A stretch of DNA of 32,000 bases, taken from contig NC_014033.1 of assembly GCF_000025925.1 (NCBI RefSeq), positions 3,120,001 through 3,152,000 of the forward strand, written 5' to 3'. Below the pieces are notes generated by a model. It did no database searches, was not told the DNA's origin, and saw nothing but the letters and a program-made list of their open reading frames with translations. Source of the stretch: Xylanibacter ruminicola 23 (GTDB taxonomy: Bacteria > Bacteroidota > Bacteroidia > Bacteroidales > Bacteroidaceae). The translations under genes and the position numbers were made by a program. Shown here one piece after another: positions 438 to 19,355 of this stretch. Each line of letters begins with the position of its first letter. Positions within the stretch are counted from its first letter, which is position 1.

Positions 438-959
438 ATGGCGATAACAAGTGAGAGATTGAACCAGACTTTTAGTGAGGGCGGAGCTCAGGAGATATAC
501 CAAGAGATTAAGGCGAAAGGGGATTTTCTGGGCTTTGCCCAACGCTATGCCTTCGACACCGACTATCGTGTGGCGAGAACTGCTTTGTGGGGTCTGACCA
601 AAGCTAAGGACGAAGAGTTGTCGGAATTGAAGGTGATATACAATGAGCTGATAGATCAGGCCATGCAGACGGAGAATTCGTCGGTGAGGCGGCTAACGCT
701 GAACATCATCGAAAAGCTGAAAATGAACGAGGATGATTTGCGGACTGACTTCCTTGATTTCTGTTTCGAGCACATGGTCAGCATCGAAGAGTTTCCTGGC
801 ATCCAAACGCTCTGCATGAAACTCGCCTTTCGCATGTGCACCTTCTATCCAGAACTGATGGACGAGTTGAAACGTACCCTCGAAGCGATGGAGATAGATT
901 ATTATAAACCCGCCATAAAGTGTCTGCGTAAAAGGATTTTCTGTGGGCGATACAAATAA
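438..959 (+). CDS. Hypothetical all-helical (HEAT/armadillo-like repeat) protein, function unknown
   Basis: A 173-aa ORF with an ATG start, tightly packed between same-strand genes. Its composition is helix-rich and I recognise no catalytic motif. Confidence 0.55.
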   Translation: MAITSERLNQTFSEGGAQEIYQEIKAKGDFLGFAQRYAFDTDYRVARTALWGLTKAKDEELSELKVIYNELIDQAMQTENSSVRRLTLNIIEKLKMNEDDLRTDFLDFCFEHMVSIEEFPGIQTLCMKLAFRMCTFYPELMDELKRTLEAMEIDYYKPAIKCLRKRIFCGRYK

Positions 960-2500: not shown

Positions 2501-2574
2501 TTCGTCACAAATCGATGCTGTTTATCCCAGAAATTTGTTGCTATCTGAAACAATGTGTACTTTTGCAGCGTCAA
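2501..2574 (+). promoter_or_regulatory. Promoter-operator module A: direct repeats, -33 TTTG, -7 TACTTTTG, then GCGTCAA
   Basis: TTCGTCACAAA lies at 2501-2511 and TTTATCCCAGA at 2521-2531, a 20-bp period. TTTG is at 2534-2537, followed by a 20-nt spacer and TACTTTTG at 2558-2565. GCGTCAA is at 2568-2574 and the ATG at 2591. Confidence 0.75.
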
Positions 2575-2590
2575 TAATCAACATAAGAAT

Positions 2591-3328
2591 ATGAATAAAG
2601 AACAAAGATTTTGTCAGAGTTGCGGAATGCCACTCACAGAGGAAGTCCTCGGTACTAATGCCGATGGCAGTAAGAACGAAGATTACTGTATGTATTGCTA
2701 CAAGGATGGAAAATTCTTGCAGGACTGCACGATGGAAGAGATGATTGAACATTGTGCACAGTTTGTTGGCGCAGTAAACGAGGGATTGGAGAAACCCATT
2801 ACAAAAGAGGAATATATCGGTATGATGAAATCGTACTTTCCCCAGTTGAAGCGCTGGCGCCAAACGTTGGATGTTAGTAACGATGAAGTGATGAATGTTA
2901 ACCCTGCTTTGGCAGGCGTTAAAGAACTTATTGCACAGATGGCCGACAAACAGCCCATCGCTTACATCTCATCGGTCGATCAGGACGGATTCCCTTGGAC
3001 CAAGGCCATGTTGAAGCCACGCAAGCGTGAGGGTATCAAAACCTTCTACTTTACAACCAACACATTCTCAATACGTGTGGCTCAATACAAGGCCAATCCC
3101 AAGGCAAGCATCTATTTCTGCGATGCTAAAGGATTTAAGGGCATGATGCTCAGAGGTACAATGGAGGTGCTGACGGATGCAGCCTCGAAGGAGATGATCT
3201 GGCGCGATGGCGACACAGAGTACTATCCAGGCGGCGTCACCGATCCTAATTACTGCGTGTTGAAGTTCACTGCTACCGATGGCCGTTTCTACAGCGATTT
3301 CTATCCACGTAGTTTCGTAATTGAGTAA
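2591..3328 (+). CDS. N-terminal zinc-ribbon domain fused to a pyridoxamine 5'-phosphate oxidase-like (general stress protein 26-type) FMN-binding split-barrel domain
   Basis: MNKEQRFCQSCGMPL...DYCMYCYKDGKF...LKRWRQ is paralogous to the C-terminus of the upstream gene. It is followed by IAYISSVDQDGFPWTKAM..., typical of the PNPOx family. The ATG at 2591 lies downstream of the -7 box at 2558-2565, so the GTG at 2555 in the track is rejected. Confidence 0.8.
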   Translation: MNKEQRFCQSCGMPLTEEVLGTNADGSKNEDYCMYCYKDGKFLQDCTMEEMIEHCAQFVGAVNEGLEKPITKEEYIGMMKSYFPQLKRWRQTLDVSNDEVMNVNPALAGVKELIAQMADKQPIAYISSVDQDGFPWTKAMLKPRKREGIKTFYFTTNTFSIRVAQYKANPKASIYFCDAKGFKGMMLRGTMEVLTDAASKEMIWRDGDTEYYPGGVTDPNYCVLKFTATDGRFYSDFYPRSFVIE

Positions 3329-3345
3329 ATGATGAACAACAAAGC

Positions 3346-3966
3346 ATGAAGGTTGTTGAATTAAATATTGACTCTACGCCGGCGCTGATTATTGGCGAGA
3401 AGAGCGAGAAAGTGTTCCTGTTTGTGCATGGGTTGCATGGACGCAAGGAAGAGGCATTGGCCTTTGCAGAGGTGGCTGTGCCCAAAGGTTATCAAGTTCT
3501 GGGTATCGACCTGCCTGTAGAGCGCAAGCCTTGGGAGGTACTGCCTTTGCTGAATGAGATACGTGATTATCTATATGATAATTGGCAATCGGTATCTGTT
3601 CGTGCTAACAGTATAGGTTCGTGGTTTACGTTGTTGGCTTTCCAGAGCAAGAAAGTGGAGCAGGCATTGCTTGTTTCTCCAATTCTCGACATGAAGCGGT
3701 TTATTGAACTGATGCCACAGCGCGAGGACGACTATTACGAGTGGGTTGTTAATAATCCAATTACAAGTTGGGTTGCGCCCACATACATTCTTCGCCCAGA
3801 AGTGGATCTGATTGTCAACGAGGAAGTAGGTTACGACTTCATCAGTCAGCATCAGTGTCAGGTCACCATCATGCCTGATGGAGAACATTGGTTTCATACG
3901 CCAGAACAGCTTGCTTTCCTGAAAGCATGGGAAGAGAAAACGATAGAAAAACATTGTATAAAATGA
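3346..3966 (+). CDS. Alpha/beta hydrolase
   Basis: It has an HGLHG oxyanion region, an ANSIG nucleophile elbow (AxSxG), and a C-terminal GEHWFH containing the catalytic His. Its stop overlaps the next start as ATGA. Confidence 0.75.
   Translation: MKVVELNIDSTPALIIGEKSEKVFLFVHGLHGRKEEALAFAEVAVPKGYQVLGIDLPVERKPWEVLPLLNEIRDYLYDNWQSVSVRANSIGSWFTLLAFQSKKVEQALLVSPILDMKRFIELMPQREDDYYEWVVNNPITSWVAPTYILRPEVDLIVNEEVGYDFISQHQCQVTIMPDGEHWFHTPEQLAFLKAWEEKTIEKHCIK
3922..3945 (+). repeat. 24-bp perfect direct repeat, copy 1 (AAAGCATGGGAAGAGAAAACGATA)
   Basis: It is identical to 5337-5360. In frame it encodes KAWEEKTI near the C-terminus of the alpha/beta hydrolase. Confidence 0.95.
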
Positions 3967-4982
3967 TGAAAGAAATATTGTACATATTGCTGGATAATTA
4001 TGCCGAGCACGAGATCGGTTTTATGCCAGGTGCAGTGAGCACCAATGCCACAGGCTTTCGTAAGGAACCAAAGTATATTAACAAGATGGTAGCCCCAACG
4101 ATGGAGCCTGTAAAATCGATTGGTGGTATGCGAACCCTGCCCGACTATTCGTTCGAAACCATGCCTGAAGATTATGCTGCCTTGGTACTGATAGGCGGTT
4201 TTGGTTGGATGAATTCCGAAGCTGAGCGTGTATTACCCATTGTTAAGGATGCGCTGAGCAAAGGTGTTGTTGTGGGAGCTATCTGTAATGCCGCTTCGTG
4301 GATGGCCAAACAGGGATTGCTGAACAACATCAAGCATACAGGAAATGGTATCAACCAACTGAAATTGTGGGGTGGCAACAACTATACCAACGAGACCGGT
4401 TATGTGAACGAGCAGGCTGTAACAGATGGTCGTATCGTTACAGCCAATGGTTCGGGATATCTTGAGTTTACACGCGAGTTGCTGAAACTGCTTGAGAACG
4501 ATACGCCAGAAATGATTAATGGCTGGTACACGTTTATGAGCGACGGACTGGTAAAGTTGTACTCGCCACGTCCTCGATTCAAATTCAACACCGTTGGCCT
4601 TTTTACCAGTAATAATAAGGCTACTGTTGATTTCTATACAAAAGCTTTTGGTTTTACCACCGACTGGGATGGCATTCAGCCAAACGTGGAGATGATGTTG
4701 GGCGACATGCGTATCATTCTCTATCCTCGTAGTGATTTCGAACAGATGGTGTCTTACAAATTTCAATATCCTATGGGGCTCAACGGCACTGTAGAATTAG
4801 CATTCGATGTTCCTTCGTATGCCGATGTTGACAAGGAATATCAGCATGCACTCCGCCATGGAGCAATATCTGTTCTTCCTCCCACCACAGAGCCATGGGG
4901 CCAGCGCACATGCTATGTGGCCGACCCTGATGGAAACCTGATAGAGATTGGCTCGTTTACAATCGAGCAGAATAATCATTGA
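3963..4982 (+). CDS. DJ-1/PfpI (class I glutamine amidotransferase-like) domain fused to a VOC (glyoxalase/bleomycin-resistance) domain
   Basis: The N-terminal half contains the nucleophile-elbow Cys in VVVGAICNAASW. The C-terminal ~125 aa (FTSNNKATVDFYTKAFGF...DPDGNLIEI) is a typical VOC fold signature. The ATG at 3963 forms an ATGA overlap with the upstream stop, and the longer track ORF from 3888 would overlap the hydrolase. Confidence 0.75.
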   Translation: MMKEILYILLDNYAEHEIGFMPGAVSTNATGFRKEPKYINKMVAPTMEPVKSIGGMRTLPDYSFETMPEDYAALVLIGGFGWMNSEAERVLPIVKDALSKGVVVGAICNAASWMAKQGLLNNIKHTGNGINQLKLWGGNNYTNETGYVNEQAVTDGRIVTANGSGYLEFTRELLKLLENDTPEMINGWYTFMSDGLVKLYSPRPRFKFNTVGLFTSNNKATVDFYTKAFGFTTDWDGIQPNVEMMLGDMRIILYPRSDFEQMVSYKFQYPMGLNGTVELAFDVPSYADVDKEYQHALRHGAISVLPPTTEPWGQRTCYVADPDGNLIEIGSFTIEQNNH

Positions 4983-4991
4983 TTAGAGATA

Positions 4992-5375
4992 ATGAAGTCT
5001 ATCCGTATTTTTGCGATGGCGCTTGCAACAATGGGTGTCATCCATATCGTAGCTACTTTTACTCCATTAATTAATGGTGGTTTGGAGTTGCTAAGTCCGG
5101 CCAAGCAGCAGGCTATAATTTATATGAGTCTAATGTGTGGCATGCTATTAATAGTGTGCGGCTTGCTTATAGCAATGCTACATAAGAAAGTAAAAGAACA
5201 TCCGTTTCTACGTAGGCCATATATGTTGATATATGGTGCACTGAGCGTTGATGGCATAGCGGCTGTCGCTTTCATGCCTCATAACCCGTTTGCGTGGCTG
5301 GTGTTTATACTTATTTGCTGTTTGGCTATTTCCCAAAAAGCATGGGAAGAGAAAACGATAATATCAAATGAATAG
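4992..5375 (+). CDS. Small integral membrane protein (about 4 TM helices), function unknown
   Basis: A 127-aa ORF with four hydrophobic stretches. Its last 12 codons include the 24-bp repeat that also ends the hydrolase gene, and it overlaps the next gene start by 8 nt. Confidence 0.55.
   Translation: MKSIRIFAMALATMGVIHIVATFTPLINGGLELLSPAKQQAIIYMSLMCGMLLIVCGLLIAMLHKKVKEHPFLRRPYMLIYGALSVDGIAAVAFMPHNPFAWLVFILICCLAISQKAWEEKTIISNE
5337..5360 (+). repeat. 24-bp perfect direct repeat, copy 2
   Basis: It is identical to 3922-3945. In frame it encodes KAWEEKTI near the C-terminus of the small membrane protein. Confidence 0.95.
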
Positions 5376-5957: not shown

Positions 5958-6031
5958 TTCGTCACAAATAACTGCGTTTTATCCCAGATATTTGGCTGTC
6001 TCAGCAATTATGCGTTCCTTTGCAGCGTCAA
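5958..6031 (+). promoter_or_regulatory. Promoter-operator module B, with the same architecture as A
   Basis: TTCGTCACAAA lies at 5958-5968 and TTTATCCCAGA at 5978-5988. TTTG is at 5991-5994, followed by a 20-nt spacer and TTCCTTTG at 6015-6022. The GCAGCGTCAA block ends at 6031 and the ATG is at 6055. Confidence 0.75.
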
Positions 6032-6054: not shown

Positions 6055-6756
6055 ATGAAAGTATTAGTCATTAACGCATCAGCAAATAAGGAGCGCAGCA
6101 CAACGCTTAAACTTACCAAAACATTTCTGGAAGGTCTCGAAGTAGAGGCTTCGGAAGTGGAGTTTGTAACAACCATTGGTCTTAATATCAATCCCTGCAG
6201 AGCTTGCTATGCCTGTTGGTTTAAGACATCAGGCGAGTGTGTGCAGAAGGACGATGCAACAGAAGTGATGGAGAAAATTCGCCAAGCCGACCTGGTTATC
6301 TGGTCGATACCTCTCTATGCCTATGGCGTACCCTCTCATTGTAAGGCACTGATGGATAGAACAGTATCGTTTAACTCGCCTTTGATGTATATCGATTCTG
6401 ATGGCATTGCCCATCACTATGGTTATGAGGAAGGCACCAAGAAAACGGTACTGATTTCGACAGCAGGACTGCCTAACATGAGGGGAAACTTCGATGGACT
6501 TCTGTTTGCCATGCGCCACATGTATGGCAAGAATATCAGTTACATCTGTTGTGCTGAGGGTTCGCTCTTCATGAATCCCGATACCGAGATTTTTACTGCT
6601 CCTTACTTAAAAAAAGTAAAGCAAGCCGGTGCAGAGTACAAGGAAACAGAAAGAATCTCTGACGAGACACAGGCGTATCTTGATACACCGATGCTCCCTG
6701 CAGATGCATTCGTCAAGACCGTGAATGGCATTTTTGAAGGAATGCTGGCACGCTAA
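6055..6756 (+). CDS. Iron-sulfur flavoprotein (Isf)-like NAD(P)H-dependent FMN reductase / flavodoxin-fold protein (second paralog)
   Basis: It begins MKVLVINASANKERSTT and carries the Cys motif CRACYACWFKTSGEC (CX2CX2CX7C). It is the first gene after promoter module B. Confidence 0.8.
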   Translation: MKVLVINASANKERSTTLKLTKTFLEGLEVEASEVEFVTTIGLNINPCRACYACWFKTSGECVQKDDATEVMEKIRQADLVIWSIPLYAYGVPSHCKALMDRTVSFNSPLMYIDSDGIAHHYGYEEGTKKTVLISTAGLPNMRGNFDGLLFAMRHMYGKNISYICCAEGSLFMNPDTEIFTAPYLKKVKQAGAEYKETERISDETQAYLDTPMLPADAFVKTVNGIFEGMLAR

Positions 6757-6778
6757 CTAGTTTTGTAATTGAATAATT

Positions 6779-7498
6779 ATGAAGAGGATGATTAAATCAA
6801 GAATTGATACAATAGAAATACAAAGCCGAACTTTAGGTAAGACTATGGTTGTTACGATTTATATGCCAACCAATTTTTGCGAGGGATTACCTGTTCTCTA
6901 TTTTATGCACGGGCGTAGTGGCGACGAGTCTATTATTCATGCTTTGTATATACAAACCGTTGCAGACAGAATGATTGCAGATGGCAGGATGAAACCAATG
7001 CTAATTGTCTGCCCAAGGATGGAAGATGCGCTAGGATTAGGTGCTTTCGAAGATTATTTCTTTAACGAGGTGATGCCAATTGTAGAGAAACAATACAAAA
7101 CGAGTGTACGTTGCATTGGAGGGGTTTCGGCTGGAGGCTTCATTGCCTTGAACTACGCTTTCCGCCATCCTTATTTATTTGAGCGAGTAGGCGGTCACAT
7201 GCCTGCCATCGAAGACGTATTGGATGATGACGACCTGCATTATTTCGGAACCAGTGAGCAATGGAAAGCAAATAATCCGCTTTTTCTGGTTCAGAAGTGT
7301 ACTTTGCCTTCAACTATGGAGATTTATCTTGACGCAGGAAGTGAGGACGAAGGTGGATTTTATCGAGGATGTGCGCAACTGGCAGAAAGATTGGCAGTCC
7401 GTGGCGTTCTGGTTCAGAATCATTTAAACGAAGGACATCATACCATTGATTATATCAAAGCTCATTTGGAGGAATATCTTATGTTTTATGCAAAATAA
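6779..7498 (+). CDS. Esterase-family alpha/beta hydrolase (putative esterase / esterase D-like)
   Basis: It has HGRSGDE near the N-terminus, a GGVSAGGF GxSxG nucleophile elbow, and a C-terminal NEGHHT His. Confidence 0.75.
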   Translation: MKRMIKSRIDTIEIQSRTLGKTMVVTIYMPTNFCEGLPVLYFMHGRSGDESIIHALYIQTVADRMIADGRMKPMLIVCPRMEDALGLGAFEDYFFNEVMPIVEKQYKTSVRCIGGVSAGGFIALNYAFRHPYLFERVGGHMPAIEDVLDDDDLHYFGTSEQWKANNPLFLVQKCTLPSTMEIYLDAGSEDEGGFYRGCAQLAERLAVRGVLVQNHLNEGHHTIDYIKAHLEEYLMFYAK

Positions 7499-7525
7499 AT
7501 AGACTATGAGTGATCTAATAGAAAT

Positions 7526-7987
7526 ATGATGAAAGACAGTATCAGTAAGGCCAACATGGACGATTTGCAGGAGATTCTCAATCTGCAATACCTTGCTTAT
7601 CAGAGTGAGGCTGCCTTATTTGGCAACAAAGATATACCACCCTTAAAGCAAACACTAGATGAGGTGATTGAGGAATACCACAAAGGTATTATCCTGAAGA
7701 TGGTGGATACAGATAATCTCATTATAGGTTCTATTCGTGCATGGGAGATGAAAGAAACCGTCTTTGTAGGAAAACTGATGGTTCATCCCGATTACAGACA
7801 TCGTGGCTATGGCACGAAACTTCTGAGTGAGATAGAGAAGTATTGCCCTCAAAAGAGATATGAGCTGTTTACGAGCACCCGTAGCATTGACAACATCCGA
7901 CTGTATCAGAAGATGGGCTATCAAGAGTTTGACCGTAGGCGCGTTGATGATCAATTAGAATTTGTATATATGGAGAAAATTGTATGA
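7526..7987 (+). CDS. GNAT N-acetyltransferase
   Basis: Motif A is present as HPDYRHRGYGTKLL, and the 153-aa size is typical of a single-domain GNAT. Confidence 0.8.
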   Translation: MMKDSISKANMDDLQEILNLQYLAYQSEAALFGNKDIPPLKQTLDEVIEEYHKGIILKMVDTDNLIIGSIRAWEMKETVFVGKLMVHPDYRHRGYGTKLLSEIEKYCPQKRYELFTSTRSIDNIRLYQKMGYQEFDRRRVDDQLEFVYMEKIV

Positions 7988-8154: not shown

Positions 8155-8228
8155 CTCATCACAAATATGTGTAATTTATCCCTAATGTTTGTTTGTCTCG
8201 GCAACAATTCGTAATTTTGTAGCGTCAA
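8155..8228 (+). promoter_or_regulatory. Promoter-operator module C, with the same architecture but a degenerate first repeat
   Basis: CTCATCACAAA lies at 8155-8165 and TTTATCCCTAA at 8175-8185. TTTG is at 8188-8191, followed by a 20-nt spacer and TAATTTTG at 8212-8219. The GTAGCGTCAA block ends at 8228 and the ATG is at 8248. Confidence 0.7.
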
Positions 8229-8795: not shown

Positions 8796-9917
8796 ATGTA
8801 TCAATCTCGTCATCTGGCAAACACTCGAATCGATGTGGCTGATGCTCTGAGAGGCATCGCTGTAGCCGGCATTATCCTGTATCACTCGGTGGAACACTTT
8901 AATATCTTTACGCAGGAGCCGATAACCCATACGCTAGCGACTGACCAGATGGTGGCCGATGTACTGGCTTGGCTGCTGTCTGGCAAGATGTACGGTATCT
9001 TCGCCATGCTCTTCGGCTTGAGTTTCTTCATCATGAACGATAATCAGCAGCAGAAAGGCAATAATTTCTCTGGGCGCTTTGCTTGGCGCATGTGCCTGTT
9101 GTTCCTCTTCGGCATAGTCAATGTGGCTTTCTACGATGGCGACATCCTGATGCTTTATGCCTGTTATGGTCTGCTGCTCATCCCAATCAGTTATCTGCCG
9201 TCGAAGTGGGTGTGGTGTATAATTGCCTTATTAGCCATCCAGCCTGTAGAACTATTCTGCCTGCTGACTGGCACCACCATCGACCACAGCACCTTGTGGG
9301 AAGTGTACAGCAAGATCAACAGTGCCCATGAGCATGGTACATTCTGGGAGAATACCCTTACCAACCTGCGATATGGATTTGAGGTGAATTTCCGCTTCAA
9401 TATCTTCAGCGGGCGACTGACCCAGCTGCTGTGCCTGTTTATTTTAGGTATGCAGTTGGGCCGCCAGCGTATGTTTTATAACGAAGGGCGTAATTTGCAG
9501 ATATGGCATCAACTGTTATGGCGATCGGCGTTGGTGGTAGTTGTGCTGAGTATTGTGGATTTTAGCGAGATAGCCTCGTGGCTTAACCCGATCTACAATC
9601 TGATGATATTGATGATGATTGTGTCGGCCATCGTTTCGGCATGGTATGCTTCTGAGGGCGTGCGCAAGGTGTTGCATCATTTGTGTATTTTCGGACGTAT
9701 GAGTCTTACCAACTATCTGCTCCAGTCCATCATCGGCTGTGCTATCTTCTGCGGCTATGGCCTGGCTTGCTATCGCCATTTAGGTGTTACCTATGCTGTG
9801 ATGGTTGGATGTGGCATGGTTGTTTGTCAGTATCTCTTTGCCAGATATTGGTTCTCCAATCATCCTCGCGGTCCGTTAGAGGGGCTTTGGAGAAAACTGA
9901 CATGGATGAGGTTGTGA
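8796..9917 (+). CDS. DUF418 (YeiB-like) polytopic membrane protein
   Basis: The N-terminus RIDVADALRGIAVAGIILYH and the C-terminus SLTNYLLQSI...HPRGPLEGLWRKLTW match the DUF418/YeiB pattern, and there are many TM segments. Confidence 0.75.
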   Translation: MYQSRHLANTRIDVADALRGIAVAGIILYHSVEHFNIFTQEPITHTLATDQMVADVLAWLLSGKMYGIFAMLFGLSFFIMNDNQQQKGNNFSGRFAWRMCLLFLFGIVNVAFYDGDILMLYACYGLLLIPISYLPSKWVWCIIALLAIQPVELFCLLTGTTIDHSTLWEVYSKINSAHEHGTFWENTLTNLRYGFEVNFRFNIFSGRLTQLLCLFILGMQLGRQRMFYNEGRNLQIWHQLLWRSALVVVVLSIVDFSEIASWLNPIYNLMILMMIVSAIVSAWYASEGVRKVLHHLCIFGRMSLTNYLLQSIIGCAIFCGYGLACYRHLGVTYAVMVGCGMVVCQYLFARYWFSNHPRGPLEGLWRKLTWMRL

Positions 9918-10075: not shown

Positions 10076-10975
10076 TTAGAGAGGCTGGGCTATCTGTATC
10101 GCAGCTCTAACTTGTGCCATATTGCTGCGCGAAACGGGGAGTGATTCGTGACAATGCTTGATGAGCAGCTGGGTAGTGCCAGAATGTGAGATAATCTGCT
10201 CTACCTGACCTAGGTTGACCATGAAAGCGCGGTGGCAACGGACTATCATTGGATAGGACTCAAGCGTTTCCTCCATGAGTTTCATCGTGGCGCGAAGCAT
10301 GTCGGTATGTACCTGATTGTTGCGCAGATGACTGACCCTGACGTAATTGCCCACAGCCTCTATATATAATAGATCGGAAATCTGTAACGTCACCGATTCG
10401 TTAGTGGTACCAGTGAGTGTGAGCTCTTGCGGTTGAGAATTCTCAACGGAGTGTTCTGCTTCGTTCGGCAATGATTGTTCGGGCTCCTGCATCTTCTTCA
10501 ATTCCTCGTTCAGCAGTCGCGTATCTTCCAGTTCTATCGCTAAATATTTGCTACGGTATTTGAAGCGCCAATAGAGTCCGATGGCGAACGAGCAGAAGGC
10601 AATGATGGCAAGGGTTTCAAGGAAATTGACAACTGAAAGCTGGTTGCCTGCATCATGTTCGTTCAGCACGAAATGGCGATAGAGGCAGATGCTCAATGCC
10701 ACGAGCGGTGTATTGATAAGTTGAAATCTGAGGTTGCGGCGGATGATGTATTCAGCGCCTTTCTTGAATGACCTCGGCATCTTGACAACATATTTCAGGA
10801 TGATGTCCGTCATCATGCAGATGAGGAAGCCAATCACTCCCAACACTATCAGATGTGCATATCCCTGCCATTGCCAATCCGACATCCAGAAAGGCTTGAA
10901 CACTGCCAGTGCCACTACTGTAAACGTAGTGCTGATAATTCTCGTTGTTATCGTTTCTTTGCGTCCTTGTTTCAT
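10076..10975 (-). CDS. Membrane-anchored LytTR-domain DNA-binding protein with no receiver domain
   Basis: The N-terminal ~165 aa contain about 4 TM helices, followed by a coiled-coil linker (LEDTRLLNEELKKMQ). The C-terminal ~100 aa form a LytTR domain (ISDLLYIEAVGNYVRVSH...RCHRAFMVNLGQV). I prefer the ATG at 10975 because a TATCTTTG -7 box (10984-10991, minus strand) lies inside the longer GTG-initiated track ORF. Confidence 0.8.
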   Translation of the reverse strand: MKQGRKETITTRIISTTFTVVALAVFKPFWMSDWQWQGYAHLIVLGVIGFLICMMTDIILKYVVKMPRSFKKGAEYIIRRNLRFQLINTPLVALSICLYRHFVLNEHDAGNQLSVVNFLETLAIIAFCSFAIGLYWRFKYRSKYLAIELEDTRLLNEELKKMQEPEQSLPNEAEHSVENSQPQELTLTGTTNESVTLQISDLLYIEAVGNYVRVSHLRNNQVHTDMLRATMKLMEETLESYPMIVRCHRAFMVNLGQVEQIISHSGTTQLLIKHCHESLPVSRSNMAQVRAAIQIAQPL

Positions 10976-10983
10976 ACAAGCCG

Positions 10984-10991
10984 CAAAGATA
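10984..10991 (-). promoter_or_regulatory. Bacteroidota -7 box TATCTTTG for the LytTR gene
   Basis: The minus strand reads TATCTTTGcggcttgtATG, placing the box 8 nt upstream of the ATG at 10975. Confidence 0.5.
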
Positions 10992-11068
10992 CAAAGAAGC
11001 GAGTAAAAAAACAAACAAATTCTCACATTTTTAAAAATTGTCGTACTCTCTGTTGCATTTCCATGCTG

Positions 11069-11153
11069 TTATCCCTGTTATTCGTCACAAAAAGTTGCAA
11101 TTCGTCCCAAAATAGGGGAGGATTGCAACTTTTTAATAACTGTGTGCCGTCAA
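11069..11153 (+). promoter_or_regulatory. Module D, a divergent variant lying between the LytTR gene and the outer-membrane receptor gene
   Basis: TTATCCCTG lies at 11069-11077, TTCGTCACAAA at 11081-11091 and TTCGTCCCAAA at 11101-11111, the last two with a 20-bp period. A -7-like TAACTGTG is at 11137-11144 and CCGTCAA at 11147-11153. The -33 position is GGGG rather than TTTG. The ATG is at 11182. Confidence 0.65.
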
Positions 11154-11181: not shown

Positions 11182-13551
11182 ATGAAACAGATTAGTTTGA
11201 AAATGGTAGCTTTGATAGCTGCAATGATGATGTGTTTATCAGCCGAGGCTATGACCGAGGATGTAGGCGGACGAGTAATTGACGCGCATGGTGAACCTTT
11301 GCCATTTGTGAGTGTGGCACTGCTTACAGCCGACTCTACTTATATACAAGGTGCAACGAGCGATGTGGATGGTTTCTTCCAGATTAAAGTCTCTGAGGTC
11401 TGTTGCATTCTACGATTCTCGTATATCGGATATCGTACCAAGTATGTTGACGTAAAGGGAATGGAAATCGGTACCATCCAGATGGAGGAAGATCAGGCGA
11501 TGCTCAGTGAGATAGTGGTGAAGGGCCAAATGCCTAAAACCAAACTGACAGGCAACTCGATGATAACCACCATTCAGGGTACTGTCTTGGGCAAGTCGGG
11601 TACTGCTCAGGAAATGCTGGCCAAGGTACCAGGTATGACGCTGAAAGGTGAAGACTTGGAGGTGCTGGGAAAGGGTACACCTATCTTTTATATTAATGGA
11701 AGAAAGATGCAGGATAAGGATGAACTGAAACGACTGCGTTCAGAAGAGATACAGAGCGTAGAGGTGATTACTAATCCTGGTGCGCAGTACGATGCCACCA
11801 TTTCGGCTGTAGTACGTATCAAGACTGTTCGCCGGGAGGGAGCTGGTTTGGGTTTCGACCTGATGGCTGCCAACAACCAGAACCTGACGTTCGGCTTCAG
11901 CGATCCCAGTAGCACGCTAAACCTGCGTTATCGTCACAACAATCTGGACCTGTTTGGTATGGTTAACTATTGGAAATGGGATAGTCCTAACGATCTGCGT
12001 ATTACGCAATCTACCTTCCTTAAGACTGATGAAGGCATTAGGAATATTCTTCAAGATAGCTACATTCGCAATGACTGGCAGGGGCAGGGCTTGAATTATA
12101 ATTTCGGATTCAACTTGCAGATTAACGACAAGCACTCGCTGGGTGCCAGAGTGGAACGTCACAACCAGTTTAAAACGCATAATGATATGTGGGTGAATAC
12201 AGAGAACAATCTTACTGGCCACGACCTCTCGCATCAGGATGATCATACCCATTATCCATATAACTGGCAGAGCAATGCCTATTATAACGGTCTGGTGGGC
12301 AAACTGAACATCGACTTGAATGTAGATTTTGCAACAGCTAAGGAAACTACCGACAACCAGATAGATGTGTATTTGCCTGAAGCCCAAACCATGCAGCAGA
12401 ACTCGCATACATGGTCACGCCTCTGGGCTGCTAAACTGGTGTTGAGCTATCCTGTGTGGAAAGGACAGTTGCAGGCGGGAACGGAGATGAGTTTCGTGAA
12501 GCGACAGAGCAGTTCGGCTATCACAAATTACCCTCTCCCTTCTACTGATACGGATGTAAAAGAAAACAATGTGGCTGCTTTTGTGGCTTACAATGCCAAC
12601 CTGGATAAATTTGGTACCGTAAGCGCCGGACTGCGTTATGAGCATGTGGGTTTTGACTATATGGACAATCTGGATGCCAATAATAATATGACACGCTATC
12701 AGGATGAGTTCTTCCCCAATATCACCTGGGCAAAGCAGTTTGGTGCTATCCAGACTTCGCTGAGCTATACTATGAAAACCGTTCGCCCGAACTATAGTGC
12801 ACTGAGCGACCATATTTATTATCTGAATTCGTTTACCCTGCAACAGGGCGACTCGAAACTGAAGAATGCTACGATGCAGGAGGTGAGCATCAATGCCAGA
12901 TGGAAGTGGATCAACCTGTTTGCTGCCTACGAGCGTCGCGACAACACCATCACTCAGGTACCAATGGCTTATAACAACGAAGGTATCATGCTACTGAAGC
13001 AGGCCAATCTGCCTGACCCCGTTCGCAATTTGGCCATCTTCCTGTCGGCCAATCCCACATGGGGCGTATATAGCCCAAGCTGGACTATCGGCGGGCAGAA
13101 GTTCTGGAACACGATGACGTTCGACGATCCTCGTAGTGATACAGGTAAGACGGATGTGACCTTCACTAAGCCTATCTTCTTCTTCGATCTGAATAACACT
13201 TTCCGCTTCAAGTATAGTTGGCAGTTGGAGGCCAATACCAACATCCAGACCAAAGGTGACGTGCTGAACTTCCGTATGCTCTCACCCTCGTATAATGTTT
13301 GTTTTGTGGTACAGAAGTGCTGGCTGAAAAACGATGCTTTGTGCTTGCGTGCCAGCATCAGCGATGTGTTCCAACGTAGCGTACAGGATGTAGCACAGGA
13401 CTGTGGTTTCTTCTACGGTGTGCAGAAAACACGAAGCCGTAGCCATCGTCTTGACATCTCTATCCGTTACACTTTCAATGCCCAGAAGAGTAAGTATAAG
13501 GGAACTGGCGCAGGTAAAGCCGAGCAGCAGCGCATGAGCAACAGCAACTGA
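11182..13551 (+). CDS. TonB-dependent-receptor-like outer membrane beta-barrel protein (CarboxypepD_reg-like N-domain, plug, then barrel); no SusD partner
   Basis: It has a signal peptide (MKQISLKMVALIAAMMMCLSAEA), a carboxypeptidase-regulatory-like domain (GRVIDAHGEPLPFVSVALL...DGFFQIKV), a plug, about 600 aa of beta-rich sequence, and a C-terminal aromatic-rich barrel end (IRYTF). Confidence 0.8.
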   Translation: MKQISLKMVALIAAMMMCLSAEAMTEDVGGRVIDAHGEPLPFVSVALLTADSTYIQGATSDVDGFFQIKVSEVCCILRFSYIGYRTKYVDVKGMEIGTIQMEEDQAMLSEIVVKGQMPKTKLTGNSMITTIQGTVLGKSGTAQEMLAKVPGMTLKGEDLEVLGKGTPIFYINGRKMQDKDELKRLRSEEIQSVEVITNPGAQYDATISAVVRIKTVRREGAGLGFDLMAANNQNLTFGFSDPSSTLNLRYRHNNLDLFGMVNYWKWDSPNDLRITQSTFLKTDEGIRNILQDSYIRNDWQGQGLNYNFGFNLQINDKHSLGARVERHNQFKTHNDMWVNTENNLTGHDLSHQDDHTHYPYNWQSNAYYNGLVGKLNIDLNVDFATAKETTDNQIDVYLPEAQTMQQNSHTWSRLWAAKLVLSYPVWKGQLQAGTEMSFVKRQSSSAITNYPLPSTDTDVKENNVAAFVAYNANLDKFGTVSAGLRYEHVGFDYMDNLDANNNMTRYQDEFFPNITWAKQFGAIQTSLSYTMKTVRPNYSALSDHIYYLNSFTLQQGDSKLKNATMQEVSINARWKWINLFAAYERRDNTITQVPMAYNNEGIMLLKQANLPDPVRNLAIFLSANPTWGVYSPSWTIGGQKFWNTMTFDDPRSDTGKTDVTFTKPIFFFDLNNTFRFKYSWQLEANTNIQTKGDVLNFRMLSPSYNVCFVVQKCWLKNDALCLRASISDVFQRSVQDVAQDCGFFYGVQKTRSRSHRLDISIRYTFNAQKSKYKGTGAGKAEQQRMSNSN

Positions 13552-13669: not shown

Positions 13670-16141
13670 ATGAAGAAAACAATTTTATCGATTACAATGA
13701 TTTGTGCTGCAACCATGATGCAAGCACAGCAGCCTGCCATCCCCCGTGATGCGGTGCTGGAGGCGAAGATTGAGAAGACTCTGGCTAAGATGACACTCGA
13801 CGAGAAGATCGGTCAGATGCTGGAACTTAACCTCGACATTATTGGCAAGATGACTGTAGAGAATGCCAAGGTGGATCGTGAAAAGGTTCGTTCAGTGATG
13901 CAGCAGTATGGCAGATCGGAAGCAGAAATCAAGGATCTGCTGAAGATGACCGACCAGCAGATTATCGACAAGTTGGGTGGATTCCCAGTAGATATCTATC
14001 AGGGTGATACCAAGCGTGTTTGGAAACTGAACGAGCAGATGCTCGATACACTTATCTCTAAGTGGAAGGTGGGATCTATCCTGAATGCACCAGGCACGAA
14101 GGCTCCAACAGTAGCCCAGTGGCAGCAGTGGATTCAGCTGATTCAGAAAAAGTCGATGAAGTATCTGGGTATTCCTGATATCTATGGACTGGATCACAAC
14201 CACGGCGTAACCTATACTCAGGGTGGAACACTCTTCCCACAGCCCATCAACTTAGGTGCATCGTTCAATACCGAACTGGCTCGCAGAGGTGCTGAGATTA
14301 CAGCTTACGAGAGTCGTGCAGCTAACTGTCCTTGGGTGTATAACCCAGTGGTTGACCTGAGTCGTGACCCACGTTGGCCTCGTGTATATGAGAGCTTTGG
14401 CGAAGATGCTATCGTAAACTCAAAGATGGTTACTGCTGAGATTAAGGGTTATCAGGGCGATGATAATAACCACATCGACCAGTATCACGTAGGTACCAGC
14501 ACCAAACACTACTTTGCCTATGGTGCCCCCTGGACTGGAAAGGATCGTACTCCAGCCTACCTCTCGCCACAGATGATTCGCGAGAAGTATTTTGAGCCAT
14601 TCAAGGCAGCTGCTTTGGCTGGTACACTCACCATGATGGTTAATTCGGCTTCAGTCAACGGCGTGCCTGTTCATGCCAGCTACGAGTATCTGACCAAGTG
14701 GCTGAAGGAAGACCTGCAGTGGGATGGATTCCTGGTTACCGACTGGGCTGATATCAACAATCTGTTCTCTCGTGAGCATGTAGCTAAGGATAAGAAAGAT
14801 GCCATCCGCATTGCTATCAATGCTGGTATCGATATGTCGATGGATCCCTATAGCGTTGAGTTCTGTATCCTGCTGAAGGAGCTGGTACAGGAGGGTAAGG
14901 TGAAGATGAGTCGTATTGATGATGCTGTTCGCCGTATCCTGCGTGCCAAGTATCGTCTGGGCCTCTTCGAGAAGCCAAACACAGGTGGAAAGGGCTTTGA
15001 GAAGTTTGGTAGTGCTGAGTTTGCAGCCGCTTCGTTGAAGGCTGCTGAGGAGAGCGAGGTGCTGCTGAAGAACGAGGGCAATATTCTGCCTCTGGCAAAG
15101 GGTAAGAAGATTCTGTTGACTGGTCCTAACGCCAACCAGATGCGTTGTCTGCATGGTGGTTGGAGCTACACCTGGCAGGGTTCGAAGGCAGAGGAACTCT
15201 CAGAGAAGTACAACACCATCTACGAGGCTCTGTGTAATAAGTATGGTAAGGAGAACATCATTCTGGAGCAGGGTGTGACCTATAATGAGAATGGAGCTTA
15301 CTATGATGAGAACGAGCCACAGATTGACAAGGCTGTAGCCGCTGCCGACAAGGCCGATGTGATTATCGCTTGTATCGGTGAGAACTCATATACCGAGACA
15401 CCTGGTAACCTGAACGACCTGTGGCTGTCGGCAAATCAGCGCAACCTGGTAAAGGCACTCGCCAAGACTGGCAAGCCCATCGTCATGGTGCTGAACGAGG
15501 GTCGTCCTCGTCTGATTGCTGATATCGAGCCATTGGCTAAGGCTGTGGTAGATATCCTGATTCCTGGTAACTACGGTGGCGACGCGCTGGCTAACCTGTT
15601 GGCTGGCGATGCTAACTTCTCGGCAAAGATGCCTTACACCTATCCTCGCGAGATTAACTCGCTGAACACCTATGATTATAAGGTATCAGAAGAGGTGGGC
15701 ACCATGGCTGGCGCTTACAACTACGATGCAAAGGTAAGTTTGCAGTGGCCCTTCGGCTATGGCATCAGCTACACCACCTACGAGTACAGCAACCTGAAGG
15801 TTGACAAGAAGCAGTTTACTGCCGCTGATGTGCTGACAGTAAGCGTAGATGTAAAGAACACTGGCGCCAAGGCCGGTAAGGAGGCTGTTCTGCTTTACAG
15901 CAGCGATCTGGTTGCATCTATCGTACCTGACAACAAGCGTCTGCGCGACTTCACTAAGATTGAGTTGCAGCCAGGCGAGGTAAAGACTGTTACCTTCCAG
16001 TTGCCTGCCAAGAACTTAGCCTTTGTAGGCGCCGATGGTAAGTGGACCCTTGAGGAGGGCGACTTTATCCTTAAGGTTGGCAACCAGACCGTAGGTACTG
16101 CTTGCACACAGACAAAGATCTGGGACGAGCCTAATATTTAA
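13670..16141 (+). CDS. Glycoside hydrolase family 3 (BglX-like beta-glucosidase/exo-glycosidase), secreted
   Basis: It has a signal peptide ([21 protein letters not shown]), [17 protein letters not shown], and the nucleophile motif GFLVTDW. The ATG at 13670 lies downstream of the TATCTTTG -7 box at 13632-13639. Confidence 0.9.
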
Positions 16142-19100
16142 TCTCGTCCTGAGTAATATAGTTCCGATTAAGGGGCAGGGAGTTTGGCGTTATCGTAAAC
16201 TTCCTGCCTTTTTCCATGTTCAGTGTTACCTTCTGGAATCTGGGGGCGGCTAACATATAACGATCGGTAGCCGGACAAACAGGATAGAATCCGATAGAAC
16301 CAAACACATACCAAGCCGACATCTGACCAGCATCGTCGTTACCCGACAAGCCGCCTGGGGTATCGTTATACTCTGTATCAAGGATATGGGCTACACGCTC
16401 GATGGTCTTTTCGCGCTTGTCGATAAAGTCGTAAAGCCAGGCTATCTGATGACAAGGCTCGTTGCCGTGCCAGTAGCGACCTTCTGAGAAGAGTGAGTCG
16501 AGCTTGGCCTCGAACTTCTCCTTGCCACCAAGCACATCGATGAGGCCTTCTACATTCTGTGGTACATACCAGGTATAGTGACAGGTTGCCCCCTCGGTAA
16601 TGTACGACTTGCGATGGATAAAGTCGGTGTTGTTCTCAAACTTTCCGTTCTGATGGCGACCGTCGCAATAGCCTGTCTTGGGATTGATCACGTTGCGCCA
16701 GTTTTCCGAGCGACGCATCAGTTCCTTGTAATCCTGCTCCTTACCCAAAGCCTTAGCCAACTGGGCTACAGCAAAATCGTCGAACGCATATTCAAGGGTT
16801 CGTGAGGTCTGCTCATCCTGGTGGAAAGCCTCTTTCACACCATCCTCCAAGGGGATATAACCGTATTTCAGGTACGAGGTGAGGGCTCTGCGACCCATGC
16901 CGTTCTTGTAGTCGTTGAAGTTGGCAGGTGTTTCAAACGCATTCTTACGCATGGCCTCGTAGGCTTTTTCGTAGTCGAAGTTCCTGATACCTTTGATATA
17001 GGCATCGGCCAGTACAGCGCTACAATGGTCGCCAATCATAGCGGCGGTATATGAGTTCCAGCAGGGGAATATGGGTAGCCAACCGCCTTCGGTGTACATG
17101 GTTACCAGCGATTGCATCATGTCTGCCGCCTTATCGGGTGCTATCAGCGTATAGAGCGGGTGCAGGGCACGATAGGTGTCCCACATCGAGAAGTCGCCGT
17201 AATAGGTAGGGTGATGGGTGGCAGGTGATGGGTGTTGGATGCTACCATCAGCAAACTTGGGATAAGCGCCATCCACATCGCTCATCTCGCGGGGGAGGAA
17301 CGAGCAGCGATAGAGGGCACCATAAAACTGATTGATGCGTGCTGTGTTGCTATCCTCTACATCGATGGTATGCAAGCGGTCGATCCATTGCTGGGCTGTT
17401 TGCGCCATTATGGTTTCAAAGTCGAAAGCTTCTACTTCTGTAGCGAAGTTTTTCTCGGCGCCTTGTTGGTTGGTAAACGAGGTGGCGGCCTTCAGGATGA
17501 TGGGCTGATAGGCTTTGCCCTCGAAGGTAAACCAGGCGCAAAGGCTATCTACACCACAGTCCTTTATTTCATCGTAAGCCTTTAGCAGATAGTGCCCATC
17601 GAAGCCAGCCTGCTCGCCCCAACCTTGATAAATACGATGCACAGGGTTGCGGCCATAGATAGTCTTCGTCTGCGGGTCAATCTGCAGATAGCCCACCTTC
17701 TCGTCGCTATTATGATTCAGTACGATGTGTACTGGTCCGTCCTGCTCAGGTGTGATGCGGAAGATGGCTGCATGGCTGCTACCTGTCATCTCTATCTTCA
17801 GATGTTCCTTGGGCAGACGTACGGCATAGTAATGGGGATGCGATATCTCTTGCTGATGCGAGAATGGGGTGGCGCGTTGTTCGGGCTTTAAACGAAGTTG
17901 ACCGCTGAGAACGGCCAAAGTAAACGATCCATAATCCTGTGTGCAACCACCTACTATCCAATGACTGTTGCGAATACCCTGAAACAGCGAGTCGGTATAA
18001 TAATAAGGTGCAATGCACTTCTGCTCAGTATCGCGGGTCTGGGGTGTCCAGAAGTTCTGTCCGTTGGGTACGAGTACTGCTGGCAGTGTTTGCCCGTGCT
18101 CTTCCGATCCTTTGCCAAACAATCCTGCAGTCTTAGTGTTGGCAGGCGCTGTGCCCACCATGGTGTTTAAGGCACATAGCTGGCGCAGATGCTCAAAGTG
18201 GTGCAGGCGGTCGGCTACCTGTTGCTTCAGCGCCTGCCAGTTCATAAAGCCTATCGAGTGCTCGTTATGCAGCAGTTGCACCTGCACGTCGCCCTGTGCA
18301 TTCTTGTAGAATATCATCTGCAGGTTAGCCGCCATGGGCAGAATCTCGTCCATGTAGTTATAATGCTCGCCTCTGAACTTAATACCCATCAAAGAAAGCA
18401 GACGGTACAGGTTTGAGTCGTGTCCGAATCGCAAGTCGGCACCCACGCCGCCACGGGCGATGGCTGCATCAGCATCGGCCTCGATACGTTGCCAAAGCGA
18501 GATGGCGCTGCGGGCAGCTATGCCATTGTTCTCAATCACGTCGCCATGAACAATCGTCATGCTCTTATTGTTCTTCTCGTAAACAGCCTGAAATTCTTCG
18601 GCTGTAAAGATATCGTAGAGCGATACGTTCAGCTCAACATCCTGCATATCCGATGCGATGGTGTGTATCTCCATCAGCAACTTGGCTGGCTCTTTTATTT
18701 TCGAGGCATCTATGAACAGGGCTTTGATAAATCTGTCGGGCGAGATGGTGAGTGGCACGTTGGTGCTGTTCTCTAACGCTTTTTCCTCTGGCGAGGTATA
18801 GGCTATCCATGCCATATCTTCTTCGCGGGTGATAGGTGTAAGGTGTTGGGTGTTGGATAATAGTTTTAGTTCATCCACAAAATTCTCCATGCTCACCTTG
18901 CATCTGTTTACGGTACTGCTATGTGCCGTTAAGTGGGCATCGTTAGTAAACAGTTGGGGGAAGTTCTGGTACATTCTGCGGGCTATGCCACGATGCTGTC
19001 GGGCACCAAGTGTTGTAAGCTGTCCGCCGTTGCCTTTGGCGTTCTTCCATATTTTTTCCAGTCGCTTACGCACATCCTTACCTAACTTTGTCAGGTTCTT

Positions 19101-19355
19101 GGTGTCGGCAAAATGCTCGTTCACCCAGGTGTAACGTGCATCGTTGGTAAGCCAGCGTGAACCATGCCTGCCATAATGCGAAATGTAGAACGGCTCGTAA
19201 CCAGCAGGGGCCGACTGTAACTGAGGCTTATCTGTACCCGTTTCGATGGGATAGGCATAATACACGCCGCCCCATTTCTCGTATTGTGCAAACACGGGGT
19301 TAGCTATCATGCATGCCAACCCTATCAACATCATTGTATATAGTACTTTCTTCAT
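16131..19355 (-). CDS. Fusion protein: N-terminal histidine acid phosphatase domain joined to a C-terminal GH92 alpha-mannosidase
   Basis: A signal peptide is followed by the RHGSRW catalytic motif (aa 63-68) and GHDSN (the HD motif) of branch-2 histidine phosphatases. From about aa 395 onward it is GH92, with [14 protein letters not shown] and [17 protein letters not shown]. At 1074 aa it exceeds the typical ~750 aa of a GH92. Confidence 0.88.

Follow-up and report, generated by a model that had tools for sequence, protein, structure and literature searches.

A receiver-less membrane LytTR protein and the direct-repeat promoter modules beside it in Xylanibacter ruminicola 23

A 32,000-nucleotide stretch of the Xylanibacter ruminicola 23 genome (contig NC_014033.1, positions 3,120,001 to 3,152,000 of the forward strand; hereafter the window) carries a gene for a LytTR protein that joins four predicted transmembrane helices to a C-terminal DNA-binding domain and lacks a receiver (REC) domain. 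It also carries four promoter modules, A to D, all facing plus-strand genes and each containing a pair of direct repeats, hereafter boxes; module D lies in the divergent promoter region of the LytTR gene. It is fairly probable that this membrane LytTR protein reads the tandem boxes, its most probable effect being activation of the four transcription units that they face. Such a pairing had been proposed in an earlier note on the same DNA, and it gains support from the conserved adjacency of module and gene in orthologous loci, from a motif-first scan of metagenomes, from related boxes beside distant relatives of the gene and from the likeness of the boxes to a site of the LytTR regulator AlgR.

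Direct-repeat modules and their association with the LytTR gene

Aligning the window copies with copies from related contigs, we recognised a 70-80-bp module in which the box architecture CCATTCGTCACA, N6, TGC, N4, TATCCCAGA is common to all four window copies and, in modules A-C, is directly followed by a promoter of the Bacteroidetes type, TTTG-N20-TAnnTTTG. A 31-nt weight matrix built from eleven copies, all of this lineage, yielded 144 matches in 978 kb of sequence (the window plus related loci) versus one in shuffled sequence. Within the window it found exactly four strong matches (34-44 bits, at 2501, 5958, 8155 and 11081) against a noise ceiling of about 9 bits, and none above noise between 11.2 and 32 kb, so that all four modules are confined to the 11.2 kb beside the LytTR gene. 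By itself, the 11-mer represented in module D by TTCGTCACAAA (11081-11091) and TTCGTCCCAAA (11101-11111) is weak evidence, with four matches versus 0.83 expected, a number reached in 3 of 100 shuffles. The 20-bp start-to-start spacing of these two boxes, and their place beside the divergent LytTR gene, are exactly as the earlier note had described them.

In the logo of 124 distinct copies, TTCGTCACA occupies positions 1-9, TGCnG positions 16-20 and TATCCCAGA positions 23-31, followed by two blocks that lie outside the matrix, namely, ATTTG at 33-37 and, after a variable 20-nt spacer, TAnnTTTGCA at 58-67. The positions between blocks are variable and nearly random. The 5' flank of box 1, also outside the matrix, reads C, C and A in 90, 103 and 107 of the 124 copies, respectively, and the ATG codon is mostly found 80-110 nt from box 1. 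The TTTG and TAnnTTTG blocks correspond to the known Bacteroides -33 and -7 promoter elements (Bayley et al., 2000, as cited in PMC6193735). A scan for the sigma-70 consensus was uninformative because Bacteroidetes promoters are of the TTTG/TAnnTTTG type. The half-site cores, TCACA and TCCCA, lie 20 bp apart, in 9-bp repeats with an 11-bp spacer, and the candidate operator ends about 2 nt upstream of the -33 element, which it abuts. This geometry fits that of LytTR operators, in agreement with the earlier proposal, and a predicted operator just upstream of -33 is in the classical activator position.

The association between module and gene was assessed in 80 species-representative loci from related rumen Prevotellaceae, which encode LytTR orthologs of 59-100% identity and were gathered with a closer alignment set, the 48-sequence family alignment being too diverse for this purpose. 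In 68 of them, the opposite strand carries a module no more than 400 bp upstream of the LytTR gene. The orientation is nearly invariant, with 121 of the 123 matrix matches (at least 14 bits) in these loci lying on the strand opposite to the LytTR gene, and, over the 500 bp upstream of the gene, modules reach a density of 1.85 per kb, versus 0.02-0.11 per kb elsewhere within 6 kb. The genes driven by the LytTR-adjacent modules vary, including LiaF-like_C genes (39 modules), OMP_b-brl_3 genes (15), GNAT or PNPOx genes (4), other TonB-type receptors (2) and others (6), and the LytTR gene likewise has different neighbours on its other side. The adjacency thus persists despite changing driven and flanking genes, which argues against inherited synteny of a single gene pair.

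Searching in the opposite direction, we scanned metagenome contigs for TCACA-N6-TGC-N4-TATCCCA-N-A-NN-TTTG, which returned at least 80 contigs, mostly from the rumen. Among the matches listed, 71 modules have at least 400 bp of sequence behind them; a LytTR ortholog is divergent and adjacent in 23 cases and is encoded elsewhere on the contig in 6 more. LytTR genes make up the largest cluster behind these listed modules and the only recurrent regulator, and no other regulator family was found to recur beside modules, either in the 80 loci or among the matches listed in the motif-first scan.

Related boxes also accompany more distant members of the LytTR clade. Loci L212 and L214, in which the LytTR proteins are 31% and 35% identical to the window protein, respectively, and L215, which encodes a relative of the L214 protein, each contain an intergenic, same-strand cluster of three or four boxes close to the LytTR gene (CGTTCGTCAC in L212; TTTCGTCCCA plus TATCCCA in L214; TTTTGTCACC in L215). 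Clusters of this kind, with at least three boxes within 70 bp followed by a TTTG/TAnnTTTG-type promoter, did not occur in 300 shuffles. In L212, the boxes precede a small open reading frame (ORF) and then GNAT and Zn_ribbon_2 genes, as in the window. No boxes were found in a subfamily of 27% identity (P0158 type) with unrelated gene contexts, indicating that the association with LiaF-like genes, outer-membrane protein (OMP) genes and boxes is specific to one clade of membrane LytTR proteins. Furthermore, box 1 with its flank, CCATTCGTC, matches CCGTTCGTC, the footprinted core site of the LytTR response regulator AlgR (PMC4064291), at 8 of 9 positions, and the L212 boxes match it at 9 of 9; this likeness, suggestive only, favours the assignment of the boxes to a LytTR protein.

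The units predicted to be controlled by modules A-C form an island of putative detoxification genes. Module A would drive the genes from the Zn_ribbon_2-PNPOx gene (ATG at 2591) through a GNAT gene ending at 5922, module B flavodoxin-like, esterase and GNAT genes (6055-7987), and module C the genes for a GNAT (8248) and a DUF418 protein (8796-9917). Two ORF starts in the module A unit are probably called too far upstream (within 2555-2590 and 3888-4100): GTG 2555 falls inside the module A promoter, ATG 2591 being the true start, and a DJ-1/PfpI-glyoxalase fusion, if begun at TTG 3888, runs into the ORF before it (3346-3966). Two adjacent genes (1579-2469 and 2591-3328) encode fusions of a Zn_ribbon_2 domain (PF12674), at the C-terminus of a GNAT in one and at the N-terminus of a PNPOx-like protein in the other, and the domain recurs in module-driven genes (L004, 1961-2863) as well as near a distant LytTR relative (L212, 6788-7057). 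Across loci, predicted regulon members include GNAT and chloramphenicol-type acetyltransferases, FMN reductases, PNPOx, isochorismatase, GyrI-like, acyltransferase-3 and CBAH-type proteins, and this enzyme content suggests that the system responds to xenobiotics or envelope stress. Downstream of 29 modules in the 80 loci, and of at least 24 in the metagenome sample, lies an OMP_b-brl_3 gene; in L004 (3861-6920, minus strand), such a gene is followed by one for a Rce1-like/CPBP intramembrane protease. The LiaF-like product, the target in 39 of the 80 loci, is a membrane protein of about 190 residues with a LiaF-like_C (DUF2154, Toastrack) domain, its gene being followed in the L004 lineage by an M13 peptidase gene. 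No LiaF-like gene was found in the window.

Table 1. Positions in the window of the LytTR gene, its domains, the promoter modules and associated elements (rc, reverse complement).
Feature	Position	Strand	Elements and basis
Receiver-less membrane LytTR gene, 299 aa	10076-10975	-	start ATG 10975, kept across relatives
N-terminal four-helix membrane domain (predicted), ~aa 1-140	10556-10975	-	hydropathy, family alignment, AlphaFold helices
LytTR DNA-binding domain, ~aa 194-293	10097-10396	-	Pfam PF04397; sequence matches to PDB 3d6w and ComE; fold matches to AgrA and ComE
Predicted LytTR gene promoter	10984-11015	-	-7 TATCTTTG (rc of 10984-10991), 20-nt spacer, -33 TTTG (rc of 11012-11015)
Box-like element TTCTCACA	11020-11027	+	abuts -33 of LytTR promoter, overlaps GTG at 11026
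Degenerate upstream module D0 (CTGTTGCATTTCCATGCTGTTATCCCTG)	11050-11077	+	likeness to the LytTR-proximal module driving a LiaF-like gene elsewhere
Module D, candidate operator	11081-11111	+	box 1 TTCGTCACA 11081-11089, TGC 11096-11098, box 2 TTCGTCCCA 11101-11109; 36.9 bits
Inverted repeat/hairpin in module D	11089-11134	+	arms 11089-11108 and 11115-11134; A-run and T-run flanks; encloses box 2
Module D, putative non-canonical promoter	11123-11151	+	TTGCAAC 11123-11129, 18 nt, CGTC 11148-11151; overlaps degenerate -7 TAACTGTG 11137-11144
Predicted module D target: CarboxypepD_reg-like + OMP_b-brl_3 outer-membrane beta-barrel	11182-13551	+	Pfam
Module A	2501-2565	+	box 1 2501-2509, box 2 2521-2529, -33 TTTG 2534-2537, -7 TACTTTTG 2558-2565; 44.0 bits
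Module B	5958-6022	+	box 1 5958-5966, box 2 5978-5986, -33 5991-5994, -7 TTCCTTTG 6015-6022; 39.1 bits
Module C	8155-8219	+	box 1 CTCATCACA 8155-8163, box 2 8175-8183, -33 8188-8191, -7 TAATTTTG 8212-8219; 33.7 bits

The LytTR protein, its gene and the module D region

The LytTR domain is the sole domain detected in the protein by Pfam (PF04397; 57.2 bits versus a cut-off of 22.6, E = 2e-15); the search recovered no Response_reg/REC domain, and residues 1-190 had no match in Pfam, MHYT included. Consistently, the NCBIfam model of BtsR matched only at positions 97-237 of 238, and that of AgrA likewise in its C-terminal half only. A profile of 48 family members compared with the PDB recovered the LytTR domains of 3d6w (9e-11) and ComE (3e-5). 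The AlphaFold model built on the 48-member alignment (predicted local distance difference test score, pLDDT, 92.4; predicted template-modelling score, pTM, 0.80) contains predicted long helices at residues 2-26, 37-63, 74-103 and 115-163, followed by a linker and a LytTR beta fold, and the hydropathy profile agrees with a four-helix N-terminus. The combination of four transmembrane helices and a LytTR domain without REC that had been read from the translation is thus borne out by Pfam, hydropathy and the structural model. In Foldseek comparisons, the beta fold of the model resembled the LytTR domains of AgrA, ComE and 3d6w (target-normalised template-modelling score 0.72-0.79), and no PDB structure matched the membrane part of the model. 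The protein therefore belongs to PF04397 by both profile threshold and fold, and it is a transmembrane transcription regulator as defined by the presence of a DNA-binding domain and at least one transmembrane segment in one polypeptide (PMC10269533). It does not belong to the two-component response regulators of the AgrA/ComE/AlgR/BtsR type, its N-terminus consisting of four membrane helices in place of REC.

The inner loops of the membrane domain are positively charged and the outer loops are very short, about 10 residues, a charge distribution that would place both termini in the cytoplasm. The family alignment of 48 sequences shows an FxPF(G) motif conserved at the end of the first transmembrane helix, an L-x-E-x-x-x-L-N motif in the linker helix and the LytTR signatures GNYV, RCHRAFxVN and PVSR; the linker at about residues 165-183 (PEQSLPNEAEHSVENSQPQ) is acidic or polar and poorly ordered (pLDDT 59-79). 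Orthologs are 100% identical in Prevotella sp. MA2016 and 99% identical in X. ruminicola Ga6B6. The earlier note had called this the only DNA-binding protein encoded in the first 19 kb, and this holds within detection limits: no other DNA-binding domain, AraC and OmpR types included, was detected in ORFs of at least 110 codons between 1 and 19 kb, four of which remain unannotated. No histidine kinase gene adjoins the LytTR gene, the nearest one (TPR plus HisKA, 19368-21221) being 8 kb away between GH92 genes, and no kinase is conserved among the orthologous loci.

In its longest reading, the LytTR ORF spans 10076-11026 on the minus strand, with 316 codons from GTG 11026. We take ATG 10975 as the start because residue 1 of the ATG form is where the alignment begins in 80 of 80 related loci, because the predicted LytTR promoter lies downstream of the GTG and because the same promoter layout recurs in orthologous loci. 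The distance from the -7 box to the ATG is only 8 nt (window 10976-10991), as in most orthologs, and the LytTR mRNA would therefore be leaderless or nearly so. Five loci (L015, L022, L029, L046 and L077) carry a conserved insert of about 90 nt (...GCGATTAAGTGAGTG...CGCATGATTGGCCGAGCGTGAGCAG...) between the start codon and the -7 box, in the would-be 5' leader; the insert is possibly a small mobile element or else an RNA element. Between the promoter and the boxes, nine loci (L016, L020, L047, L050, L057, L061, L070, L072 and L081) have three or four tandem copies of the 7-nt AGTGAAA/AGTGAAG, in the place of which L014 has a TTTTCAAT repeat. Beyond the LytTR stop codon, the neighbour is a convergent DUF418 gene and no membrane gene follows downstream.

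The intergenic region contains box-like elements additional to module D. In place of TTCTCACA, orthologs have TTCCTCACA or TTCGTCACA; most orthologous loci contain two to four boxes in this region, at offsets of about 10-13 and 18-21 bp, and one box in inverted orientation adjoins the -33 of the regulator. The presence of multiple boxes beside the regulator promoter, in the window as in orthologs, leads us to infer cooperative binding and autoregulation. The degenerate module D0, for which the matrix score is below threshold, may be a remnant of the promoter of a LiaF-like gene. Module D itself lacks the canonical -33 and -7 elements of modules A-C, which is a qualification to the proposed reading.

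The perfect 8-bp inverted repeat that had been reported around box 2 (GTTGCAAT, 11094-11101, and ATTGCAAC, 11122-11129) is exact and forms the core of a longer structure, with 13 perfectly paired bases (11089-11101/11122-11134) extending to 20 nt at 85%. The RNA is predicted to fold with -25.9 kcal/mol (z -7.2), with an A-run before it and a U-run after it; the L001 ortholog (~5255-5312, minus strand) reaches -30.6 kcal/mol and shows compensating changes. Inverted repeats of the same length but with different stem sequences are found around box 2 in other OMP-type modules (also L007, ~3040-3095, minus strand). A palindromic operator was considered and rejected since the repeats of OMP-type modules differ in sequence and position (CTGCATAA/TTATGCAG, AAACCCCTGCATA...), which argues for a structure rather than a shared protein site. 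Of the 13 modules with an inverted repeat of 8 bp or more, 11 have a co-directional ORF that ends within 400 nt upstream, versus 44 of the 111 others. The repeat thus looks like a terminator-type hairpin closing the preceding transcription unit, its overlap with the operator being incidental, and, given the A-run and T-run, it looks like a bidirectional terminator.

Alternative explanations for the modules

Several observations weigh against the pairing, which is drawn from co-localisation and resemblance. Being drawn from related rumen Prevotellaceae, the 80 loci are not independent, and 12 of them have no module adjacent to the LytTR gene; these 12 lack a divergent intergenic region or are interrupted by an assembly gap. 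Paralogs encoded in one genome share boxes (L032/L064 and L018/L035), which makes the assignment of paralogs to promoters ambiguous. The near-consensus -33 and -7 elements of modules A-C weaken the need for an activator and make repression possible. A match to the AlgR site by chance, given the registers and known sites that are comparable, has an estimated probability of a few per cent. HigX, the one four-helix LytTR factor that has been characterised, recognises a 19-bp motif containing an inverted repeat of 8 bp, whereas the boxes here are direct repeats. Finally, an element resembling promoters of extracytoplasmic function (ECF) sigma factors is present in modules of the OMP and detoxification types, so that another factor may share their control.

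One alternative is that the modules are bound by a factor encoded elsewhere, of the AraC/Rob or OmpR type or a soluble response regulator of the LytTR family, the gene for the membrane LytTR protein being just a regulon member that tends to lie beside a module. Direct repeats that abut -35 about two helical turns apart are also known for AraC/XylS and OmpR/PhoB regulators, and the GNATs, flavin reductases and GyrI-like protein resemble regulons of the Mar/Sox/Rob type. Furthermore, 42 of the 71 modules among the matches listed in the motif-first scan have no LytTR gene on their mostly short contigs, which is to be expected for a regulon and proves nothing. However, no rival regulator recurs beside the modules in either search direction, no AraC or OmpR domain was detected in the first 19 kb of the window, the boxes follow the LytTR clade into relatives with different neighbours, and they resemble a footprinted LytTR site; we therefore consider this explanation unlikely. 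That the modules are a duplicated or mobile promoter cassette without a dedicated regulator, similar through common descent, is suggested by the likeness of the four window copies over about 75 bp and by the local clustering of modules. This account is extremely unlikely: conservation over the 124 copies is block-wise, which points to selection on sites rather than to recent copying, the helical spacing of the blocks is fixed, and related boxes have different flanks in distant lineages.

The modules might also be ECF-sigma promoters (G[CA]AAC, N16-18, CGTC), with the upstream boxes secondary and the LytTR protein not the main controller. The pattern G[CA]AAC-N16-18-C[GA]TC occurs in 22 of 32 modules of the OMP type and 7 of 11 of the GNAT/PNPOx type, including window modules A (2546-2573) and D (11123-11151), module D has no good TAnnTTTG, an ECF sigma factor gene is encoded in the window (25779-26273), and in L064 (~440-560, minus strand) a module immediately precedes an ECF sigma gene. 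In module C (8202-8226), GCAAC and CGTC are 19 nt apart. Yet over the 124 modules the ECF-like positions are only about 50% conserved, compared to 78-93% for TTTG and TAnnTTTG, the element is absent from 38 of 39 LiaF-type modules (1 of 39 carries it), the L064 module has no CGTC at the expected place, and the strongest conservation, upstream of -33, would be left unexplained. An ECF promoter was accordingly rejected as a reading of the whole module, and as a main mode of control it is very improbable; in the OMP and detoxification-type modules, the element looks like an ECF-sigma promoter that would add an extra layer of control at most. The location of the L064 module before an ECF sigma gene hints at a cascade from LytTR protein to sigma factor.

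Elsewhere in the window, the ECF sigma gene, on the minus strand, overlaps the end of a GH43 gene and has no recognisable anti-sigma gene. The kinase mentioned above, with TPR, HisKA and HATPase_c domains and encoded on the minus strand between the two GH92 genes, is an orphan with no response regulator nearby. One of the GH92 products, an alpha-mannosidase-type protein of 1074 residues (16131-19355, minus strand), has an N-terminal extension with a weak match to His_Phos_2 (histidine phosphatase).

Known membrane LytTR systems and the predicted circuit

The concept of transmembrane LytTR regulators with direct repeats is already known from Bacteroides. Zou et al. (2018; PMC6193735) described in silico operons resembling LytTR regulatory systems (LRS), in which a DUF2154/NfeD membrane protein gene precedes that of a multi-transmembrane LytTR regulator, for instance, B. 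thetaiotaomicron Btheta7330_RS19920/RS19915 and their counterparts in B. ovatus; 11-bp direct repeats lie 11 bp upstream of a TGTA-19-TATCTTTG promoter. As judged from the published description, the LRS-like regulators and the window protein share several transmembrane segments before the LytTR domain and the lack of a receiver, and in both cases direct repeats lie just upstream of a -33/TAnnTTTG promoter. By contrast, the LRS-like repeats (TCCGGTATTCA, 11 bp, ACCGGAAATCA) have a 22-bp period and end 11 bp from the promoter, compared to the 20-bp period and the 2-nt distance from TTTG of the modules described here. The DUF2154 (LiaF-like_C) partner, present in 39 of the 80 orthologous loci and absent from the window locus, is divergent where it occurs, whereas the LRS-like membrane protein, with its extra NfeD domain, is encoded upstream in the operon of the regulator. 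Moreover, the present boxes are not confined to the system's own promoter and are found at many, in front of OMP and detoxification-type genes. In architecture and logic the system described here thus resembles those already known; it differs in the sequence and phase of the boxes, in the divergent rather than operonic partner genes and in a dispersed but well-defined predicted regulon.

An experimentally studied protein of similar architecture is HigX of Caulobacter crescentus (PMC13384398, 2026), a membrane-associated factor composed of four transmembrane helices, a linker and a LytTR domain that needs its membrane domain. In HigX as in the window protein, there is no periplasmic domain and four N-terminal helices are joined by a low-complexity linker to a LytTR domain at the C-terminus, and the targets of HigX are enriched in envelope and transport genes, similar to the predicted regulon; HigX differs in being under SOS control, beside higBA and in a different phylum. 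The Streptococcus mutans systems HdrRM and BrsRM (PMC6193735) likewise tie a receiver-less LytTR protein to a membrane component and are autoregulated through direct repeats with 11-12-bp spacers about 10 bp upstream of the promoter, but their regulator is soluble and sequestered by a separate, downstream-encoded membrane inhibitor, whereas here the membrane domain is fused to the regulator. The window protein, itself an integral membrane protein with no membrane gene downstream, therefore falls outside the S. mutans-type LRS. With AgrA, ComE and AlgR, it shares the DNA-binding fold and a site composed of 9-bp imperfect direct repeats about two helical turns apart upstream of -35, whereas it has no receiver or adjoining histidine kinase, is anchored in the membrane and would use a spacer of 11 rather than 12 bp. 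Fusion of a membrane sensor to a DNA-binding domain is also known from BcrR of Enterococcus, as summarised in PMC13384398, in which the DNA-binding domain differs, and from CoxC (PMC11347149), in which an MHYT sensor domain, not detected by Pfam in the window protein, is fused to LytTR. CoxC and, according to the same summary, BcrR sense their signal in or at the membrane, to which the promoter has to come (PMC13384398, PMC11347149).

Transmembrane transcription regulators are enriched in Bacteroidota (PMC10269533), and we found no experimental work on a Bacteroidota membrane LytTR factor in the searchable literature, nor, beyond Zou et al. (2018), anything specific on members of this family or the motif in the literature on Prevotella and Bacteroides. 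The literature found, including this survey, therefore matches the earlier remark that such proteins are common in the phylum and essentially uncharacterised.

Combining this evidence, we suggest that the four-helix membrane domain, almost devoid of periplasmic loops, would sense a signal probably within the membrane, such as a hydrophobic xenobiotic or envelope damage, and would transmit it through a long, probably dimerising linker helix to the cytoplasmic LytTR domains. These domains would occupy the tandem repeats (half-site core TCMCA) directly upstream of the -33 of Bacteroidetes sigma-A promoters. The four units would most probably be activated, with module D controlling the gene for the outer-membrane beta-barrel and modules A-C an island of acetyltransferase, flavin reductase, PNPOx and glyoxalase genes, and the boxes abutting the regulator's own -33 would probably provide feedback on its promoter. 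The LiaF-like (Toastrack) protein, the first target in most related genomes, is a possible partner or feedback inhibitor.

A broader version of this proposal, speculative and rather unlikely, is that the four-helix domain is a receptor for membrane-active xenobiotics or envelope damage, through which a membrane-held regulator would switch on dispersed drug- or toxin-modifying enzymes (GNAT and chloramphenicol-type acetyltransferases, PNPOx, flavin reductases, glyoxalase/DJ-1 and penicillin-acylase/bile-salt-hydrolase-type proteins) together with outer-membrane barrels. With the LiaF-like protein as feedback partner and an ECF-like layer on part of the targets, this would amount to a Bacteroidota-specific inducible circuit of the 'intrinsic resistome'.

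Membrane LytTR factors are abundant in Bacteroidota, gut and rumen metagenomes containing thousands of members of this clade alone. The locus described here offers an entry point to them, with a sharply defined 30-bp predicted operator, dozens of predicted target promoters and a recurring three-part core of regulator, LiaF-like membrane protein and outer-membrane barrel, and with predicted regulon enzymes of kinds whose usual substrates are antibiotics, plant toxins or electrophiles. Should the pairing hold, it would provide a testable model of how a membrane-fixed transcription factor gains access to several promoters, a compact inducible promoter/regulator pair for Bacteroidota genetics and a model of how rumen Prevotella sense and detoxify membrane-active compounds.

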